Virus record (IMG/VR): IMGVR_UViG_2740892258_000001
Reading direction: 5' to 3' (one strand)
DNA: 11,188 nt
DNA from: a virus
Lineage: Duplodnaviria > Heunggongvirae > Uroviricota > Caudoviricetes
Of the stretch, positions 1 through 11,188 are shown piece after piece. The stretch's first letter is position 1, and the number at the start of each line of letters is the position of its first letter. The position numbers and the translations under genes are program-made. The notes below the pieces were generated by a model. That model searched no databases. It worked only from the letters and a program-made list of their open reading frames with translations, and had not been told where the DNA came from.

Positions 1-258
1 CCCCTGTCAGGGAGTGAAGAGACAATTTATCTTTACGCCGTCACGTCCTTGATGCTTCCAGGTAGAGAGGGGCTGGAAGCAGGAGAAAAATGAAAGAGCC
101 AGCGGTTATATTTTTGTCATGGCTGACGAGGAATGATGGAAGAAGGCGTTGTATGCCACACAACGCCTCACTGTTCATTTCTTCTTTTTCTCTAGTGGAA
201 CCCGATGAATAAGAGTTGCACTGGTTTCCGATGAGATGGCGATATACTCGGGCAAAGT

Positions 259-441
259 ATGCTGGCAGTTTTCCAACTGGTCAAAAATACCTGCTCTCGT
301 CTGTTGCAATGCCTGCAGCATGCGGCGGCAATGCGCCTTGCTTTTGCTAACCATCTTTCCTTCCTCTATCAGTCGCTGCGTGAACTCATCATGGAATACC
401 AGGTAAATGCGGATGTTATCGGTTTTGGCTACGCAGCATAG
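259..441 (+). CDS. hypothetical small protein (60 aa), uncertain
   Basis: ATG ORF in the phage right-end region. Codon choice looks enterobacterial (frequent CTG/GCG/CGT, no rare Arg/Ile codons), but there is no clear Shine-Dalgarno and no recognised homologue. A longer 117-aa ORF on the opposite strand (175..528) overlaps it and has poorer codon quality. Confidence 0.2.
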   Translation: MLAVFQLVKNTCSRLLQCLQHAAAMRLAFANHLSFLYQSLRELIMEYQVNADVIGFGYAA

Positions 442-804
442 TACAAAACGGACAGGTGCATCCCGGGACGGGGGAGGCGTCACATGTCCCTGTGATGGTT
501 GTTCCGGGTAATGCACTGTGTGGGGCATAAAAATGTCCGATAATTTTACTTTCTACCGCAGTTAGTTGATTCGTTGGTCCTGGTAGCACATTGGGCGAGG
601 ATTTAAATGCCAGGCAACTGAAGGATGATGTTGCAAGGGAGATAGCGAGAATATTTCTGATTTTCATTTGATGATGCCTCTGTGTGAAATGACGGTAAAC
701 GACGCACTTGTGCCGGCACATAATAGCAAGCACCATAATAGATCAGATTCGATTCTTGCTGTAAGTGATAATTATTCTCGTTTTTCGGGTCCTTTCCGGC
801 GATC

Positions 805-828
805 CAACAGGCTACGGGGCGGCGACCT
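805..828. other. cosN, terminase nicking site with 12-nt cohesive end
   Basis: GGGCGGCGACCT at 816..827 is the lambda left cohesive end, preceded by ...GATCCAACAGGCTACG resembling the lambda right terminus. Predicted nicks are between 815/816 on the top strand and 827/828 on the bottom strand. Right-end and left-end sequences are contiguous here. Confidence 0.8.
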
Positions 829-865
829 CGCGGGTTTTCGCTATTTATGAAAATTTTCCGGTTTA

Positions 866-986
866 AGGCGTTTCCGTTCTTCTTCGTCATAACTTAATGT
901 TTTTATTTAAAATACCCTCTGAAAAGAAAGGAAACGACAGGTGCTGAAAGCGAGCTTTTTGGCCTCTGTCGTTTCCTTTCTCTGTT
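866..986. other. cosB, terminase small-subunit binding region (R3, R2, R1 elements with AT-rich IHF-type spacer)
   Basis: Three copies of a CGTTTCC(G/T)TTCT-like element: 869..886 direct (cgtttccgttcttcttcg), 924..940 inverted (reverse complement ctgtcgtttcctttctt), 966..984 direct (ctgtcgtttcctttctctg). An AT-rich stretch at 889..916 lies between R3 and R2. The region sits between cosN and the Nu1 start, as in lambda. Confidence 0.7.
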
Positions 987-1005
987 TTTGTCCGTGGAAT
1001 GAACA

Positions 1006-1525
1006 ATGGAAGTCAACAAAAAGCAGCTGGCTGACATTTTCGGTGCGAGTATCCGTACCATTCAGAACTGGCAGGAACAGGGAATGCCCGTTCTGCGAGG
1101 CGGTGGCAAGGGTAATGAGGTGCTTTATGACTCTGCCGCCGTCATAAAATGGTATGCCGAAAGGGATGCTGAAATTGAGAACGAAAAGCTGCGCCGGGAA
1201 GTTGAAGAACTGCGGCAGGCCAGCGAGACAGATCTCCAGCCAGGGACTATTGAGTACGAACGCCACCGACTTACGCGTGCGCAGGCCGACGCACAGGAGC
1301 TGAAAAATGCCAGAGACTCCGCTGAAGTGGTGGAAACCGCATTCTGTACTTTCGTGCTGTCGCGGATCGCAGGTGAAATTGCCAGTATTCTCGACGGGAT
1401 CCCCCTGTCGGTGCAGCGGCGTTTTCCGGAACTGGAAAACCGACATGTTGATTTCCTGAAACGGGATATCATCAAAGCCATGAACAAAGCAGCCGCGCTG
1501 GATGAACTGATACCGGGGTTGCTGA

Positions 1526-1551
<26 letters not shown>
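1006..1551 (+). CDS. nu1: terminase small subunit (gpNu1-like), 181 aa
   Basis: Translation MEVNKKQLADIFGASIRTIQNWQEQGMPVLRGGGKGNEV... matches lambda gpNu1 along its whole length as I recall it (N-terminal winged-HTH region). It is the first gene downstream of cosB and is the same length as lambda Nu1. Confidence 0.95.
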
Positions 1552-5232
<3,681 letters not shown>

Positions 5233-5252
<20 letters not shown>

Positions 5253-6552
5253 TCTCCCGCATATTGCCAGCATGGCTTTTAATGAGCCGCTGATGCTTGA
5301 ACCCGCCTATGCGCGGGTTTTCTTTTGTGCGCTTGCAGGCCAGCTTGGGATCAGCCGCCTGACAGATGCGGTGTCCGGTGACAGCCTGACTGCCCCGGAG
5401 GCACCCGCGACGCTGGCGTTATCCGGTGATGATGACGGACCACGACAGGCCCGCAGTTATCAGGTCATGAACGGCATCGCCGTGCTGCCGGTGTCCGGCA
5501 CGCTGGTCAGCCGGACGCGGGCGCTGCAGCCGTATTCGGGGATGACCGGTTACAACGGCATTATCGCCCGTCTGCAACAGGCTGCCAGCGACCCGATGGT
5601 GGACGGCATTCTGCTCGATATGGATACGCCAGGCGGGATGGTGGCAGGGGCATTTGACTGCGCTGACATCATCGCCCGTGTGCGTGACATAAAGCCGGTA
5701 TGGGCGCTGGCCAATGACATGAACTGCAGTGCAGGGCAGCTGCTTGCCAGCGCCGCCTCCCGGCGTCTGGTCACGCAGACCGCCCGGACAGGCTCCATCG
5801 GCGTCATGATGGCTCACAGTAATTACGGTGCTGCGCTGGAGAAACAGGGCGTGGAAATCACGCTGATTTACAGCGGCAGCCATAAGGTGGATGGCAACCC
5901 CTACAGCCATCTTCCGGATGACGTCCGGGAGACACTGCAGTCCCGGATGGATGCAACCCGCCGGATGTTTGCGCAGAAGGTGTCGGCATATACCGGCCTG
6001 TCCGTGCAGGCTGTGCTGGATACCGAGGCTGCAGTGTACAGCGGTCAGGAGGCCATTGATGCCGGACTGGCTGATGAACTTGTCAACAGCACCGATGCGA
6101 TCACCGTTATGCGTGATGCACTGGATGCACGTAAATCCCGTCTCTCAGGAGGGCGAATGACCAAAGAGACTCAATCAACAACTGTTTCAGCCACTGCTTC
6201 GCAGGCTGACGTTACTGACGTGGTGCCAGCGACGGAGGGCGAAAACGCCAGCGCGGCGCAGCCGGACGTGAACGCGCAGATCACCGCTGCGGTTGCGGCA
6301 GAAAACAGCCGCATTATGGGGATCCTCAACTGTGAGGAGGCTCACGGACGCGAAGAACAGGCTCGCGTGCTGGCCGAAACCCCCGGTATGACCGTGGAAA
6401 CGGCCCGCCGCATTCTGGCCGCAGCACCACAGAGTGCACAGGCGCGCAGTGACACTGCGCTGGATCGTCTGATGCAGGGGGCACCGGCACCGCTGGCTGC
6501 AGGTAACCCGGCATCTGATGCCGTTAACGATTTGCTGAACACACCAGTGTAA
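5233..6552 (+). CDS. C: head maturation protease / scaffold-processing protein (gpC-like, ClpP/S49-type fold), 439 aa
   Basis: GTG start at 5233 preceded by AGGAGGAG (5221..5228), overlapping the last 20 nt of B. Translation VTAELRNLPHIASMAFNEPLMLEPAYARVFF... matches lambda gpC. The six-frame ORF extends further upstream, but the lambda-equivalent start is this GTG. Confidence 0.9.
5947..6552 (+). CDS. nu3: scaffolding protein (gpNu3-like), translated from an in-frame internal start within C, 201 aa
   Basis: ATG at 5947 is in frame with C (MDATRRMFAQKVSAYTGLSV...) and shares the C stop. Its position corresponds exactly to the lambda Nu3 start when the window is offset by the same 815 nt that maps Nu1, A, W, B and C. 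The nested arrangement is established lambda biology; weak SD. Confidence 0.75.
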   Translation: MDATRRMFAQKVSAYTGLSVQAVLDTEAAVYSGQEAIDAGLADELVNSTDAITVMRDALDARKSRLSGGRMTKETQSTTVSATASQADVTDVVPATEGENASAAQPDVNAQITAAVAAENSRIMGILNCEEAHGREEQARVLAETPGMTVETARRILAAAPQSAQARSDTALDRLMQGAPAPLAAGNPASDAVNDLLNTPV

Positions 6553-6561
6553 GGGATGTTT

Positions 6562-6894
6562 ATGACGAGCAAAGAAACCTTTACCCATTACCAGCCGCTG
6601 GGCAACAGTGACCCGGCTCATACCGCAACCGCGCCTGGCGGATTGAGTGCGAAAGCGCCTGCAATGACCCCGCTGATGCTTGACACCGCCACCCGTAAGC
6701 TGGTTGCGTGGGATGGCACCACCGACGGTGCTGCCGTTGGCATTCTTGCGGTTGCTGCTGACCAGACCAGCACCACACTGACGTTCTACAAGTCCGGCAC
6801 GTTCCGTTATGAGGATGTGCTCTGGCCGGAGGCTGCCAGCGACGAGACGAAAAAACGGACCGCGTTTGCCGGAACGGCAATCAGCATCGTTTAA
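6562..6894 (+). CDS. D: head decoration protein (gpD-like), 110 aa
   Basis: Translation [52 protein letters not shown]...AISIV matches lambda gpD. SD AAGGGA at 6551..6556 is spaced for the ATG at 6562; the upstream in-frame ATG at 6556 is probably not used. Confidence 0.9.
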
Positions 6895-6911
6895 CCTGAC
6901 CCTTCATCACT

Positions 6912-6936
6912 AAAGGCCGCATGTGCGGCTTTTTTT
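6912..6936 (+). terminator. stem-loop plus T-tract in the D-E spacer (intrinsic-terminator-like, possible attenuator)
   Basis: aaaGGCCGC-atgt-GCGGCttttttt: GC-rich 5-bp core stem (extendable through A:U pairs), 4-nt loop, then seven T at 6930..6936, about 14 nt before the E start codon. Confidence 0.4.
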
Positions 6937-6949
6937 ACGGGATTTTTTT

Positions 6950-7975
6950 ATGTCGATGTACACAACCGCCCAGCTGCTGGCGGCAAATGAGCAGAAATTT
7001 AAGTTTGATCCGCTGTTTCTGCGTCTCTTTTTCCGTGAGAGCTATCCCTTCACCACGGAGAAAGTCTATCTCTCACAAATTCCGGGACTGGTAAACATGG
7101 CGCTGTACGTTTCGCCGATTGTTTCCGGTGAGGTTATCCGTTCCCGTGGCGGCTCCACCTCTGAATTTACGCCGGGATATGTCAAGCCGAAGCATGAAGT
7201 GAATCCGCAGATGACCCTGCGTCGCCTGCCGGATGAAGATCCGCAGAATCTGGCGGACCCGGCTTACCGCCGCCGTCGCATCATCATGCAGAACATGCGT
7301 GACGAAGAGCTGGCCATTGCTCAGGTCGAAGAGATGCAGGCCGTTTCTGCCGTGCTTAAGGGCAAATACACCATGACCGGTGAAGCCTTCGATCCGGTTG
7401 AGGTGGATATGGGCCGCAGTGCGGCGAATAACATCACGCAGTCCGGCGGCACGGAGTGGAGCAAGCGTGACAAGTCCACGTATGACCCGACCGACGATAT
7501 CGAAGCCTACGCGCTGAACGCCAGCGGTGTGGTGAATATCATCGTGTTTGATCCGAAAGGCTGGGCGCTGTTCCGTTCCTTCAAAGCCGTCAGGGAGAAG
7601 CTGGATACCCGTCGCGGCTCTCATTCCGAACTGGAGACAGCGGTAAAAGACCTGGGTAAAGCGGTGTCCTATAAGGGGATGTATGGCGATGTGGCCATCG
7701 TCGTGTATTCCGGACAGTACGTGGAAAACGGCGTCAAAAAGAACTTCCTGCCGGACAACACGATGGTGCTGGGTAACACTCATGCACGCGGTCTGCGCAC
7801 CTATGGCTGCATTCAGGATGCGGACGCACAGCGCGAAGGCATTAACGCCTCTGCCCGCTACCCGAAAAACTGGGTGACCACCGGCGATCCGGCGCGTGAG
7901 TTCACCATGATTCAGTCAGCACCGCTGATGCTGCTGGCTGACCCTGATGAGTTCGTGTCCGTACAACTGGCGTAA
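6950..7975 (+). CDS. E: major capsid protein (gpE-like, HK97 fold), 341 aa
   Basis: Translation MSMYTTAQLLAANEQKFKFDPLFLRLFFRESYPFTTEKVYLSQIPGLVNMALYVSPIVSGEV... through ...DPDEFVSVQLA matches lambda gpE over its full length. Same length as lambda E. Confidence 0.95.
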   Translation: MSMYTTAQLLAANEQKFKFDPLFLRLFFRESYPFTTEKVYLSQIPGLVNMALYVSPIVSGEVIRSRGGSTSEFTPGYVKPKHEVNPQMTLRRLPDEDPQNLADPAYRRRRIIMQNMRDEELAIAQVEEMQAVSAVLKGKYTMTGEAFDPVEVDMGRSAANNITQSGGTEWSKRDKSTYDPTDDIEAYALNASGVVNIIVFDPKGWALFRSFKAVREKLDTRRGSHSELETAVKDLGKAVSYKGMYGDVAIVVYSGQYVENGVKKNFLPDNTMVLGNTHARGLRTYGCIQDADAQREGINASARYPKNWVTTGDPAREFTMIQSAPLMLLADPDEFVSVQLA

Positions 7976-7977
7976 TC

Positions 7978-7995
7978 ATGGCCCTTCGGGGCCAT
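7978..7995 (+). other. perfect hairpin with UUCG-type tetraloop in the E-FI spacer
   Basis: ATGGCCC-ttcg-GGGCCAT: 7-bp perfect inverted repeat with a 4-nt ttcg loop, beginning 3 nt after the E stop, followed by a T-rich stretch and the FI SD GGAGGAG (8007..8013). Confidence 0.4.
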
Positions 7996-8016
7996 TGTTT
8001 CTCTGTGGAGGAGTCC

Positions 8017-8412
8017 ATGACGAAAGATGAGCTGATTGCCCGTCTCCGCTCGCTGGGTGAGCAACTGAACCGTGATGTCAGCCTGACGGGGACGAAAGAA
8101 GAACTGGCACTCCGTGTGGCAGAGCTGGAAGAGGAGCTTGATGACACGGATGACGCTGCCGGTCAGGACACATCTGTCAACCCGGAAAATGCGCTGACCG
8201 GGTATGAAAATAACGTGGTATCAGCGCAGCCGGATACCGTGACTGATACGGCTGCTCTGGTCACGGTCGTGGCACTGGTGACGCTGCATACTGATGCACT
8301 TCACGCCACGCGGGATGAACCTGTGGCATTTGTGCTGCCGGGAACGGCGTTTCGTGTCTCTGCCGGTGTGGCAGCCGAAATGACAGAGCGCGGCCTGGCC
8401 AGAATGCAATAA
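8017..8412 (+). CDS. FI: DNA packaging / head-assembly accessory protein (gpFI-like), 131 aa
   Basis: ATG at 8017 with strong SD GGAGGAG. Translation MTKDELIARLRSLGEQLNRDVSLTGTKEELALRVAELEEELDD...AAEMTERGLARMQ matches lambda gpFI at the N and C termini, with a diverged acidic/linker middle. The six-frame ORF starts earlier (7978), inside the hairpin. Confidence 0.9.
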   Translation: MTKDELIARLRSLGEQLNRDVSLTGTKEELALRVAELEEELDDTDDAAGQDTSVNPENALTGYENNVVSAQPDTVTDTAALVTVVALVTLHTDALHATRDEPVAFVLPGTAFRVSAGVAAEMTERGLARMQ

Positions 8413-8423
8413 CGGGAGGCGCT

Positions 8424-8777
8424 GTGGCTGATTTCGATAACCTGTTCGATGCTGCCATTGCCCGCGCCGATGAAACGATACGCGGGTACATGGGAACGTC
8501 AGCCACCATGACATCCGGTGAGCAGTCCGGTGCTGTGATACGTGGTGTTTTTGATGACCCTGAAAATATCAGCTATGCCGGACAGGGCGTGCGCGTTGAA
8601 GGCTCCAGCCCGTCCCTGTTTGTCCGGACTGATGAGGTGCGGCAGCTGCGGCGTGGAGACACGCTGACCATCGGTGAGGAAAATTTCTGGGTAGACCGGG
8701 TTTCGCCGGATGATGGCGGAAGCTGTCATCTCTGGCTTGGGCGTGGCGTGCCGCCTGCCGTTAACCGTCGCCGCTGA
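8424..8777 (+). CDS. FII: head-tail connector protein (gpFII-like), 117 aa
   Basis: GTG start at 8424 with SD GGGAGG (8414..8419). Translation (M)ADFDNLFDAAIARADETIRGYMGTSATMTSGEQSGAVIRGVFDDPENISYAGQGVRVEG... matches lambda gpFII. Confidence 0.9.
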   Translation: MADFDNLFDAAIARADETIRGYMGTSATMTSGEQSGAVIRGVFDDPENISYAGQGVRVEGSSPSLFVRTDEVRQLRRGDTLTIGEENFWVDRVSPDDGGSCHLWLGRGVPPAVNRRR

Positions 8778-8788
8778 AAGGGGGATGT

Positions 8789-9367
8789 ATGGCCATAAAA
8801 GGTCTTGAGCAGGCCGTTGAAAACCTCAGCCGTATCAGCAAAACGGCGGTGCCCGGTGCCGCCGCAATGGCCATTAACCGCGTTGCTTCATCCGCGATAT
8901 CGCAGTCTGCGTCACAGGTTGCTCGTGAGACAAAGGTACGCCGGAAACTGGTAAAGGAAAGGGCCAGGCTGAAAAGGGCCACGGTCAAAAATCCGCAGGC
9001 CAGAATCAAAGTTAACCGGGGGGATTTGCCCGTAATCAAGCTGGGTAATGCGCGGGTTGTCCTGTCCCGCCGCAGGCGTCGTAAAAAGGGGCAGCGTTCA
9101 TCCCTGAAAGGTGGCGGCAGCGTGCTTGTGGTGGGTAACCGTCGTATTCCCGGCGCGTTTATTCAGCAACTGAAAAACGGCCGGTGGCATGTTATGCAGC
9201 GTGTGGCCGGGAAAAACCGTTACCCCATTGATGTGGTGAAAATCCCGATGGCGGTGCCGCTGACCACGGCGTTTAAACAGAATATTGAACGGATACGGCG
9301 TGAACGTCTTCCGAAAGAGCTGGGCTATGCGCTGCAGCATCAACTGAGAATGGTAATAAAGCGATGA
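8789..9367 (+). CDS. Z: tail completion protein (gpZ-like), 192 aa
   Basis: ATG at 8789 with SD AAAGGGGGA upstream. Translation MAIKGLEQAVENLSRISKTAVPGAAAMAINRVASSAISQSASQVARETKVRRKL... matches lambda gpZ. Same length as lambda Z. Confidence 0.9.
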   Translation: MAIKGLEQAVENLSRISKTAVPGAAAMAINRVASSAISQSASQVARETKVRRKLVKERARLKRATVKNPQARIKVNRGDLPVIKLGNARVVLSRRRRRKKGQRSSLKGGGSVLVVGNRRIPGAFIQQLKNGRWHVMQRVAGKNRYPIDVVKIPMAVPLTTAFKQNIERIRRERLPKELGYALQHQLRMVIKR

Positions 9368-9759
9368 AACATACTGAACTCCGTGCAGCCGTACTGGATG
9401 CACTGGAGAAGCATGACACCGGGGCGACGCTTTTTGATGGTCGCCCCGCTGTTTTTGATGAGGAAGATTTTCCGGCAATTGCCGTTTATCTCACCGGCGC
9501 TGAATACACGGGCGAAGAGCTGGACAGCGATACCTGGCAGGCGGAGCTGCATATTGAAGTTTTCCTGCCTGCTCAGGTGCCGGATTCAGAGCTGGATTCG
9601 TGGATGGAGTCCCGGATTTATCCGGTGATGAGCGATATCCCGGCACTGTCAGATTTGATCACCAGTATGGTGGCCAGCGGCTATGACTACCGGCGCGACG
9701 ATGATGCGGGCCTGTGGAGTTCAGCCGATCTGACTTATGTCATTACCTATGAAATGTGA
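9364..9759 (+). CDS. U: tail tube terminator protein (gpU-like), 131 aa
   Basis: ATGA overlap with the Z stop. Translation MKHTELRAAVLDALEKHDTGATLFDGRPAVFDEEDFPAIAVYLTGAEYTGEELD...LTYVITYEM matches lambda gpU. Confidence 0.9.
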   Translation: MKHTELRAAVLDALEKHDTGATLFDGRPAVFDEEDFPAIAVYLTGAEYTGEELDSDTWQAELHIEVFLPAQVPDSELDSWMESRIYPVMSDIPALSDLITSMVASGYDYRRDDDAGLWSSADLTYVITYEM

Positions 9760-9782
9760 GGACGAGAGAGGTATACCGACAA

Positions 9783-10486
9783 ATGGCAGCGACGCACACA
9801 CTCCCTCTGGCGTCACCGGGAATGGCACGCATCTGCCTTTACGGGGATTTGCAACGATTTGGCCGCCGCATCGACCTTCGTGTGAAAACGGGGGCTGAAG
9901 CCATCCGGGCACTGGCCACACAGCTCCCGGCGTTTCGGTGAAAACGGGGGCTGAAGCCATCCGGGCACTGGCCACACAGCTCCCGGCGTTTCGCCAGAAA
10001 CTGAATGAGGGCTGGTATCAGGTGCGCATTTCCGGGCGTGATGCAGGCGAAAATGAATTATCTGCCCGTCTTAATGAACCGCTGGCAAATGGTGCCGTGA
10101 TCCACGTCGTTCCGCGTCTGGCGGGTGCCAAAAGTGGCGGTGTGTTTCAGGCGGTGCTGGGTGCGGCGCTGATTGCGGTGGCATGGTGGAACCCTGTTGG
10201 CTGGCTGGGGGCCGCGGCTGTATCGGGTCTGTATGCAGCAGGGGCCAGTATGATCCTGGGTGGTGTGGCGCAGATGCTGGCACCGAAAGCCAGGACGCCC
10301 ACGGCAGCCAGTACAGATAACGGCAAACAGAACACCTATTTTTCTTCACTGGATAATATGGTTGCCCAGGGCAATGTTCTGCCCGTTCTGTACGGTGAAA
10401 TGCGCGTGGGATCACGTGTGGTATCTCAGGAGATCAGCACAGCAGATGAAGGTGATGGTGGTCAGGTTGTGGTGATTGGTCGCTGA
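9783..10486 (+). pseudogene. I: tail assembly protein I homologue, split by a frameshifting 56-bp tandem duplication
   Basis: ATG at 9783 gives MAATHTLPLASPGMARICLYGDLQRFGRRIDLRVKTGAEAIRALATQLPAFR, then TGA at 9939..9941. The remaining ...QKLNEGWYQVRISGRD...GGQVVVIGR is in another frame (9938..10486). Both termini match lambda gpI as I recall it. Removing one 56-bp repeat copy restores a single ORF of about 215 aa. Confidence 0.8.
9882..9993. repeat. perfect tandem duplication, 2 x 56 bp
   Basis: gtgaaaacgggggctgaagccatccgggcactggccacacagctcccggcgtttcg occurs at 9882..9937 and again, identical, at 9938..9993. Flanking bases differ on both sides, so there are exactly two copies. 56 is not a multiple of 3. 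Confidence 0.95.
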
Positions 10487-10504
10487 TGAAAAACGTTTTA
10501 TGTG

Positions 10505-10530
10505 AAACCGCCTCCGGGCGGTTTTATCGT
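10505..10530 (+). terminator. stem-loop plus T-rich tail in the I-J spacer (intrinsic-terminator-like)
   Basis: AAACCGCC-tccg-GGCGGTTT: perfect 8-bp stem with 4-nt loop, followed by tatcgttt. It lies in the 60-nt spacer between the I stop (10486) and the canonical J start (10547). Confidence 0.3.
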
Positions 10531-10546
10531 TTATGGAGCATGACGA

Positions 10547-11188
10547 ATGGGGATTAAAAAGCGTGCTGCTGAACAGTACGCCGGTGCTGGACAGTGAGGG
10601 GAATACCAATATATCCGGCGTCACGGTGGTGTTCCGGGCAGGTGAGCAGGAGCAGTCACCGCCGGAGGGATTTGAATCCTCCGGCTCCGAGACGGTGCTG
10701 GGTACGGAAGTGAAATATGACACGCCGATCACCCGCACCATTACGTCGGCAAACATCGACCGTCTGCGCTTTACCTTCGGTGTACAGGCACTGGTGGAAA
10801 CCACCTCAAAGGGTGACAGGAATCCGTCGGAAGTCCGTCTGCTGGTTCAGATACAGCGTAATGGTGGCTGGGTGACGGAAAAAGACATCACCATTAAGGG
10901 CAAAACCACCTCGCAGTATCTGGCCTCGGTGGTGGTGGGTAACCTGCCGCCGCGCCCGTTCAATATACGGATGCGCAGGATGACGCCGGACAGCACCACA
11001 GACCAGCTGCAGAACAAAACGCTCTGGTCGTCATAACGCTGACGCTCGACCGTGAAATCACGCTGCCATCCTCCGGTACCACGCTGATAAGTCTGGTTGA
11101 CGGAAGTGGCAATCCGGTCAGCGTGGAGGTTCAGTCCGTCACCGACGGCGTGAAGGTGAAAGTGAGCCGTGTTCCTGACGGCGTTGCC
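10547..11188 (+). pseudogene. J: tail tip / host-specificity protein J homologue, fragmented by a 5' frameshifting lesion and an internal deletion; continues past the window end
   Basis: Canonical start ATG at 10547 with SD GGAG (10535..10538) reads MGIKKRAAEQYAGAGQ then stops at 10595..10597. The J body GLKSVLLNSTPVLDSEGNTNISGVTVVFRAGEQEQ...QLQNKTLWSS is in a different frame (10551..11033) and ends at TAA 11034..11036. From 11039 a third frame encodes LTLDREITLPSSGTTLISLVDGSGNPVSVEVQSVTDGVKVKVSRVPDGVA, which in lambda J lies about 300 residues further on. Confidence 0.8.

Follow-up and report, generated by a model that had tools for sequence, protein, structure and literature searches.

The gene examined here corresponds to J of bacteriophage lambda, which encodes the tip attachment and host-specificity protein gpJ (lambdap21) and is preceded by the genes nu1...U, K and I; its coding sequence (15505-18903 in NC_001416) was used as the reference for codon numbering. 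Genuine decay in prophages of the same kind is represented by DLP12 of Escherichia coli K-12, which we take to be a heavily deleted relative residing at the DLP12-type locus, and by the J pseudogenes of E. coli 1916D18 and SCU-104. A further point of comparison is technical, namely that adjacent contigs of a de Bruijn graph assembly overlap by k-1 nucleotides, as in Velvet (Zerbino and Birney 2008). Artefacts arising in such assemblies usually end in a run of N characters or in a contig break.

The window, by which we mean the whole 11,188-bp stretch of DNA analysed, shows the lambda gene order upstream of J and is present in its entirety as CVOH01000018.1, a single complete contig of the NCBI draft assembly GCA_001245225.1, with zero N characters. 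No paper mentioning the accession GCA_001245225.1 was found in the literature, the sole match being unrelated. The closest intact prophage is a lambda-like element carried by E. coli N54 (locus L002, NZ_CM165885.1 3,619,642-3,654,032) and about a dozen similar strains, for example IHE3034. Since the N54 prophage is flanked by ompT, ybcH and nfrA, the surroundings of a DLP12-type locus, the prophage of the window would be a less decayed counterpart of K-12 DLP12 in the same chromosomal neighbourhood. The N54 locus between L002 20278-34391 contains lom, stf-like tail fibre genes, duplicated ompT and methyltransferase genes, an integrase remnant, ybcH and nfrA. Window positions 50-9764 match the intact N54 prophage collinearly and without a difference, and from base 50 on (11.1 kb) there are zero substitutions; the structural joins number four, all within the final 1.4 kb (9764/9765, 9937/9938, 10550/10551 and 11035/11036), and the blocks that they connect stand in the right order and orientation (Table 1). 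Judging from this match, the strain evidently carries a lambda-like prophage at a DLP12-type site that is essentially identical to the one in N54.

The last join, at 11035/11036, sits 153 bp before the contig end and lies inside J. In BLAST comparisons with lambda (NC_001416, locus L001), window 10551-11035 aligned to 15625-16109 and window 11036-11187 to 17014-17165, both at about 97% DNA identity, while the same two blocks are 100% identical to J of N54. The intervening 904 bp of lambda (16110-17013), beginning with the third base of codon 202 and ending with codon 503, are missing from the window, such that the J frame jumps at the join from codon 202 to codon 504 and, because 904 mod 3 = 1, distal J continues out of frame, at +1 relative to the preceding block. 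The open reading frame 10533..11036 accordingly terminates ...QLQNKTLWSS, with a TAA stop assembled from bases on both sides of the join. From 11039 onward, in the other frame, the window reads LTLDREITLPSSGTTLISLVDGSGNPVSVEVQSVTDGVKVKVSRVPDGVA, the protein stretch encoded there beginning LTLDREITLPSSGTT... The first-pass annotation had described both the end of this frame and the resumption of J coding from 11039, and translation bears it out on each point; its estimate that roughly 300 residues, or about 0.9 kb, separate the two segments in lambda J is likewise accurate, the lambda alignment giving 904 bp. The direct repeats that it had proposed as possible signs of replication slippage or illegitimate recombination are absent: neither microhomology nor direct repeats were detected at the J breakpoints, and the join is blunt.

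The retained reading frame matches the Pfam domain FNIII-A_GpJ (E = 2e-38), and the missing stretch holds the end of the FNIII-A domain together with the entire Phage-tail_3 hub domain; in the intact N54 J (1159 aa), all six J domains are present in Pfam searches. Homology, a J-specific Pfam domain and the order K 3' end, I (PF06805) and J all identify the gene as that of a lambda-type gpJ. What sets the record apart from lambda gpJ is the absence of J codons 2-40 and of codons 202-503, as well as its stop at codon 554, where the contig ends. The 904-bp gap and the stop are truly in the database record.

Table 1 Blocks of the window and distances of their edges from sites at which other prophage loci differ from N54
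Feature	Window position	Strand	Position in N54 prophage (L002)	Differing site (L002)	Loci with the difference	Content or remark
Head block	1..9764	+	420-10183			nu1, A, W, B, C/nu3, D, E, FI, FII, Z, U
Block B1, 173 bp	9765..9937	+	16004-16176			K 3' end and 5' part of I; 100% to N54
Perfect 56-bp tandem duplication	9882..9993	+				Copies 9882-9937 and 9938-9993; K stop and I 5' region
Block B2, 613 bp	9938..10550	+	16121-16733			Divergent I-gene module, I-J spacer, first J bases
Block B3, 485 bp	10551..11035	+	16850-17334			J codons 41-201 and two bases of codon 202
Block B4, 153 bp	11036..11188	+	18239-18391			Lambda 17014-17165; J codons 504-554; ends at contig end
TAA stop	11034..11036	+				T and A of J codon 202 and A of codon 504, across 11035/11036
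Head end			10183	10184	8	IMG/VR prophages, preceding 56-mer exact
B1 start			16004	16060 (start + 56)	74	
B1 end / B2 start			16176 / 16121	16177 (B2 start + 56)	126	
B1 end, second site				16120 (end - 56)	4	
B2 end			16733	16677 (end - 56)	5	
B3 start			16850	16849 (start - 1)	8	After exact 56-mer
B3 end			17334	17278 (window 10979; end - 56)	20	
B4 start			18239	18295 (window 11092; start + 56)	91	Loci with exact 18239-18294

Upstream of the joins, the head block contains the Pfam families Phage_Nu1, GpA, gpW, portal, S49, HDPD, cap_E, FI, Phage_attach, Z and U. At 9764/9765, gene U directly abuts the 3' end of K, and 5,820 bp are missing relative to N54 (V, G, T, H, M, L and most of K); the left edge of this join is located 3 nt ahead of the start codon of V and coincides with a mosaic boundary at which other prophages part from N54. 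The second join, at 9937/9938, falls between the two copies of a tandem duplication that are identical at 56/56 bases, and other tested repeat lengths from 50 to 61 do not fit. The GTG that opens the second copy is the gene caller's start for a 182-aa I ORF. The block that follows is 100% identical to N54 and 76% to lambda. It ends at the third join, 10550/10551, where 116 bp (J codons 2-40) are missing with an ambiguity of 1 bp, in agreement with the 5' lesion of J reported in the first-pass annotation. An ATG at 10533, in the I-J spacer, is by chance in the frame of the J body, producing the fusion ORF MEHDEWG-LKSVLL..., which was called as a 167-aa gene.

The four joins were searched for in other sequences by exact 28-mer scans (GTDB representatives, IMG/VR and JGI metagenomes) and, among complete E. 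coli genomes, by BLAST with 120-nt and 4 x 60-nt probes. The 5,426 complete E. coli genomes, 14 of which carry a prophage with at least 99% identity, contain none of them, and neither do the GTDB species representatives, IMG/VR or JGI metagenomes; the J junction did not recur in independent sequences of the lineage. At the protein level, the 167-aa junction ORF (10533..11036) has an exact match on CVOH01000018.1 alone, among about 15 billion proteins. The J segments themselves are common, being present in 4,457 of the 5,426 complete E. coli genomes, with 4 places as the per-genome median and 6 places in N54. The 90% cluster of the 167-aa ORF consists largely of partial J fragments on contigs of 0.3-1.3 kb, indicating that the J region routinely shatters in short-read assemblies. 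The piece predicted to have been omitted from the contig (N54 J residues 184-521) was absent from the protein collection as a separate partial protein.

Both halves of J occur close together in only two of the complete genomes, 1916D18 and SCU-104, where they are annotated as J pseudogenes and have other junctions. In these genomes, the frameshifted or partial J pseudogenes span positions 2597-5108 of locus L235 (E. coli 1916D18) and 1492-6399 of locus L236 (E. coli SCU-104), and the segments that flank the join are spaced by 74 nt and about 500 nt, respectively. A separate 25.5-kb record, IMGVR_UViG_2724679539_000001 (loci L009 and L052), carries the K/I 56-mer twice in opposite orientation; a prophage tail region may have been assembled there as a palindrome or a chimera.

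To place the block edges relative to differences between prophage copies, we used variant sites obtained by aligning first 120 and later 224 loci to the N54 prophage with BLAST, under one consistent assignment of ambiguous bases; these loci are IMG/VR prophages of other genomes and stand as a population proxy for copies co-resident in the strain. The duplicated 56-mer is found exactly in lambda and in IMG/VR prophages numbering at least 120; lambda and all of the sampled loci (120 of 120) depart from N54 at the base that immediately follows, L002 16177. When offsets from 20 to 130 nt were scanned, a variant was present at offset 56 for 8/8 edges (Table 1), while offset 57 scored 5 through microhomology ambiguity and all remaining offsets scored 0-3. 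A second set of 104 loci, found with a 99-mer and chosen independently of the duplicated 56-mer, again gave 56 as the best offset. A random edge meets the 56-nt rule with a probability of 0.10-0.15, and the joint chance probability of the edge fits is about 1e-5 to 1e-6; taken by itself, the J join has a value of about 5e-4, given the locus counts observed.

Both edges of the J join lie 56 nt from common variant sites, at the right-hand one of which (L002 18295) lambda also differs from N54, and the J breakpoints are hence not independent of assembler k-mer structure. The variant sites 17278 and 18295 have 1,016 bp between them, and 1,016 - 2 x 56 = 904. Among 231 analysed loci, none was identical to N54 across the whole of 17279-18294, suggesting that this interval would comprise several nodes, or a repeat with an unsampled copy. 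The right contig end (L002 18391) showed no fit to the 56-nt rule in the sampled loci. The IMG/VR loci that have the N54-type I junction are just 84-95% identical and come from other taxa, and no co-resident pair was found among them. Across the contig, mismatches to N54 occur at window 1, 20 and 49 only. All three fall within the first 56 nt (k-1) of the contig, and this sequence pattern suggests that the contig start is a stretch common to another prophage allele in the isolate.

The 56-nt edge geometry together with the exact 56-bp duplication is the signature of concatenated k = 57 nodes, and on this reading of its sequence the contig evidently derives from short reads assembled in a de Bruijn graph at k = 57. 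The join at 11035/11036, like the other three, is very probably an artefact of such an assembly, in which the tail of the contig would consist of k = 57 nodes concatenated untrimmed and ungapped. The strain, as do most E. coli, probably harbours additional lambdoid prophages whose K, I and J segments are near-identical, and these co-resident prophages would carry the common variants seen elsewhere. The graph would then split the prophage into nodes at every point where another copy joins or leaves it; a node edge is expected to lie either 56 nt from the closest differing base within the node or beside a differing base just outside it, and a copy-specific node would start k-1 = 56 nt before its first copy-specific base. 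A head node of 9.7 kb and four short nodes would have been pasted in order, with neither gap characters nor overlap trimming. If B1 and B2 are true neighbours in the graph, their 56-bp overlap would have been written twice, appearing as the tandem duplication, and omitted repeat nodes common to other prophages would appear as deletions. The step that removed the gaps could be a scaffolder, a gap closer or a submission script.

In the widely used pipeline of Velvet, SSPACE and GapFiller described by Page et al. (2016, PMC5320598), k is chosen within 66-90% of the read length, and its authors caution that false joins can result; greedy scaffolding and gap filling are documented to make such joins (PMC5320598); if that pipeline was applied here, k = 57 would fit reads of 63-86 nt. 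On the other side, the 5.8-kb skip from V to K is hard to explain by bridging with short-insert read pairs. Standard scaffolders also generally insert Ns instead of butt-joining. The contig resembles known de Bruijn artefacts in its duplicated 56-bp overlap, its k-1 edges, its ordered pieces and the position, at the contig end, of a prophage region that is multi-copy in most E. coli, but differs from their usual outcome in being butt-joined and N-free and in having one join that skips 5.8 kb. Velvet's internal scaffolding and SSPACE were considered as the culprit and set aside, since both generally insert Ns or merge overlaps. An artefact of read mapping or consensus calling was also rejected, because it cannot make a tandem duplication and would scale with read length, not with an odd k.

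The difficulty of the 5.8-kb skip leads to a mixed case, which we regard as unlikely, in which assembly would account only for the two J gaps and the 56-bp duplication, the V-K loss being real. In its favour, 5.8 kb would exceed ordinary paired-end inserts, the V-K join has a 3-bp microhomology (ACG), and this join taken alone fits the k = 57 rule by chance with a probability of about 0.04-0.09. The microhomology is, in turn, consistent with chance, and both V-K edges fit under one partition of the ACG (10183 with 10184, and 16004 with 16060); moreover, k-mers would bridge a true junction, and the contig would continue across it with no node edges.

Quite unlikely, in our estimate, is a genuine deletion in which a decaying prophage lost 904 bp of J, by itself or together with the other three lesions, via illegitimate end-joining or one-step template switching. 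Joins that are blunt or have 0-3 bp of microhomology are as in RecA-independent deletions, and prophage tail genes do decay, as seen in 1916D18 and SCU-104 with their J pseudogenes at other breakpoints and in K-12 DLP12 at the same locus. Those junctions, however, belong to finished genomes, whereas the ones described here occur on a single draft contig only and match the k-mer geometry of an assembler. Four structural lesions would have to be set against zero substitutions in 11.1 kb, and this combination, with the joins packed at the end of a draft contig and within a region that is multi-copy in most E. coli, is unlike gradual prophage decay. Eight breakpoints at offsets of k-1 = 56 have no biological reason and would need coincidence, the duplication corresponds to exactly a 56-nt offset and exactly one shared 56-mer, and the joins were found in no other public sequence searched. 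The out-of-frame central deletion of J proposed in the first-pass annotation consequently holds as a description of the record, in that 904 bp are missing relative to lambda J and to N54 and a stop lies at the join; as a genomic event it is not supported, since the joins follow the k-1 = 56 rule. Its conclusion that J is non-functional through deletion is not supported either, with four joins near the end of a draft contig and edges that obey the same rule.

That all four lesions are real, produced in an otherwise pristine prophage by a single MMBIR-like, replication-based template switch of the form deletion-duplication-deletion-deletion with joins that are blunt or have 0-3 bp of microhomology, is very unlikely; if true, such an event would have reduced the prophage to a tail-less remnant with head genes only. 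That J naturally has a short allele of this kind, or that the TAA was created by a base-call error, is hardly credible at all, given that the segments are adjacent, in frame or otherwise, in none of the 5,426 complete E. coli genomes (an in-frame adjacency being what the first-pass annotation had named as refuting its deletion), that the missing part holds the conserved Phage-tail_3 hub domain, and that the segments lie in different frames so that no single-base fix restores the reading frame.

By this analysis, the missing J codons are properties of the record and not of the gene. Errors of this class are known from draft assemblies, and the present example is an unusually clean one: in a public whole-genome shotgun record, butt-joined pieces mimic gene-inactivating deletions and a duplication, which matters mainly as quality control. 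The k-1 offset test, in which block edges are found exactly k-1 from variant sites between copies, offers a read-free way of detecting false joins in drafts. Were the deletion real, the element would be just another ordinary decayed prophage. The underlying gene is an ordinary lambda-type J, with no new biology, and J in the genome of the isolate is probably intact. Automated calling of pseudogenes or of prophage completeness from this contig would misjudge the prophage as tail-less and J-defective.
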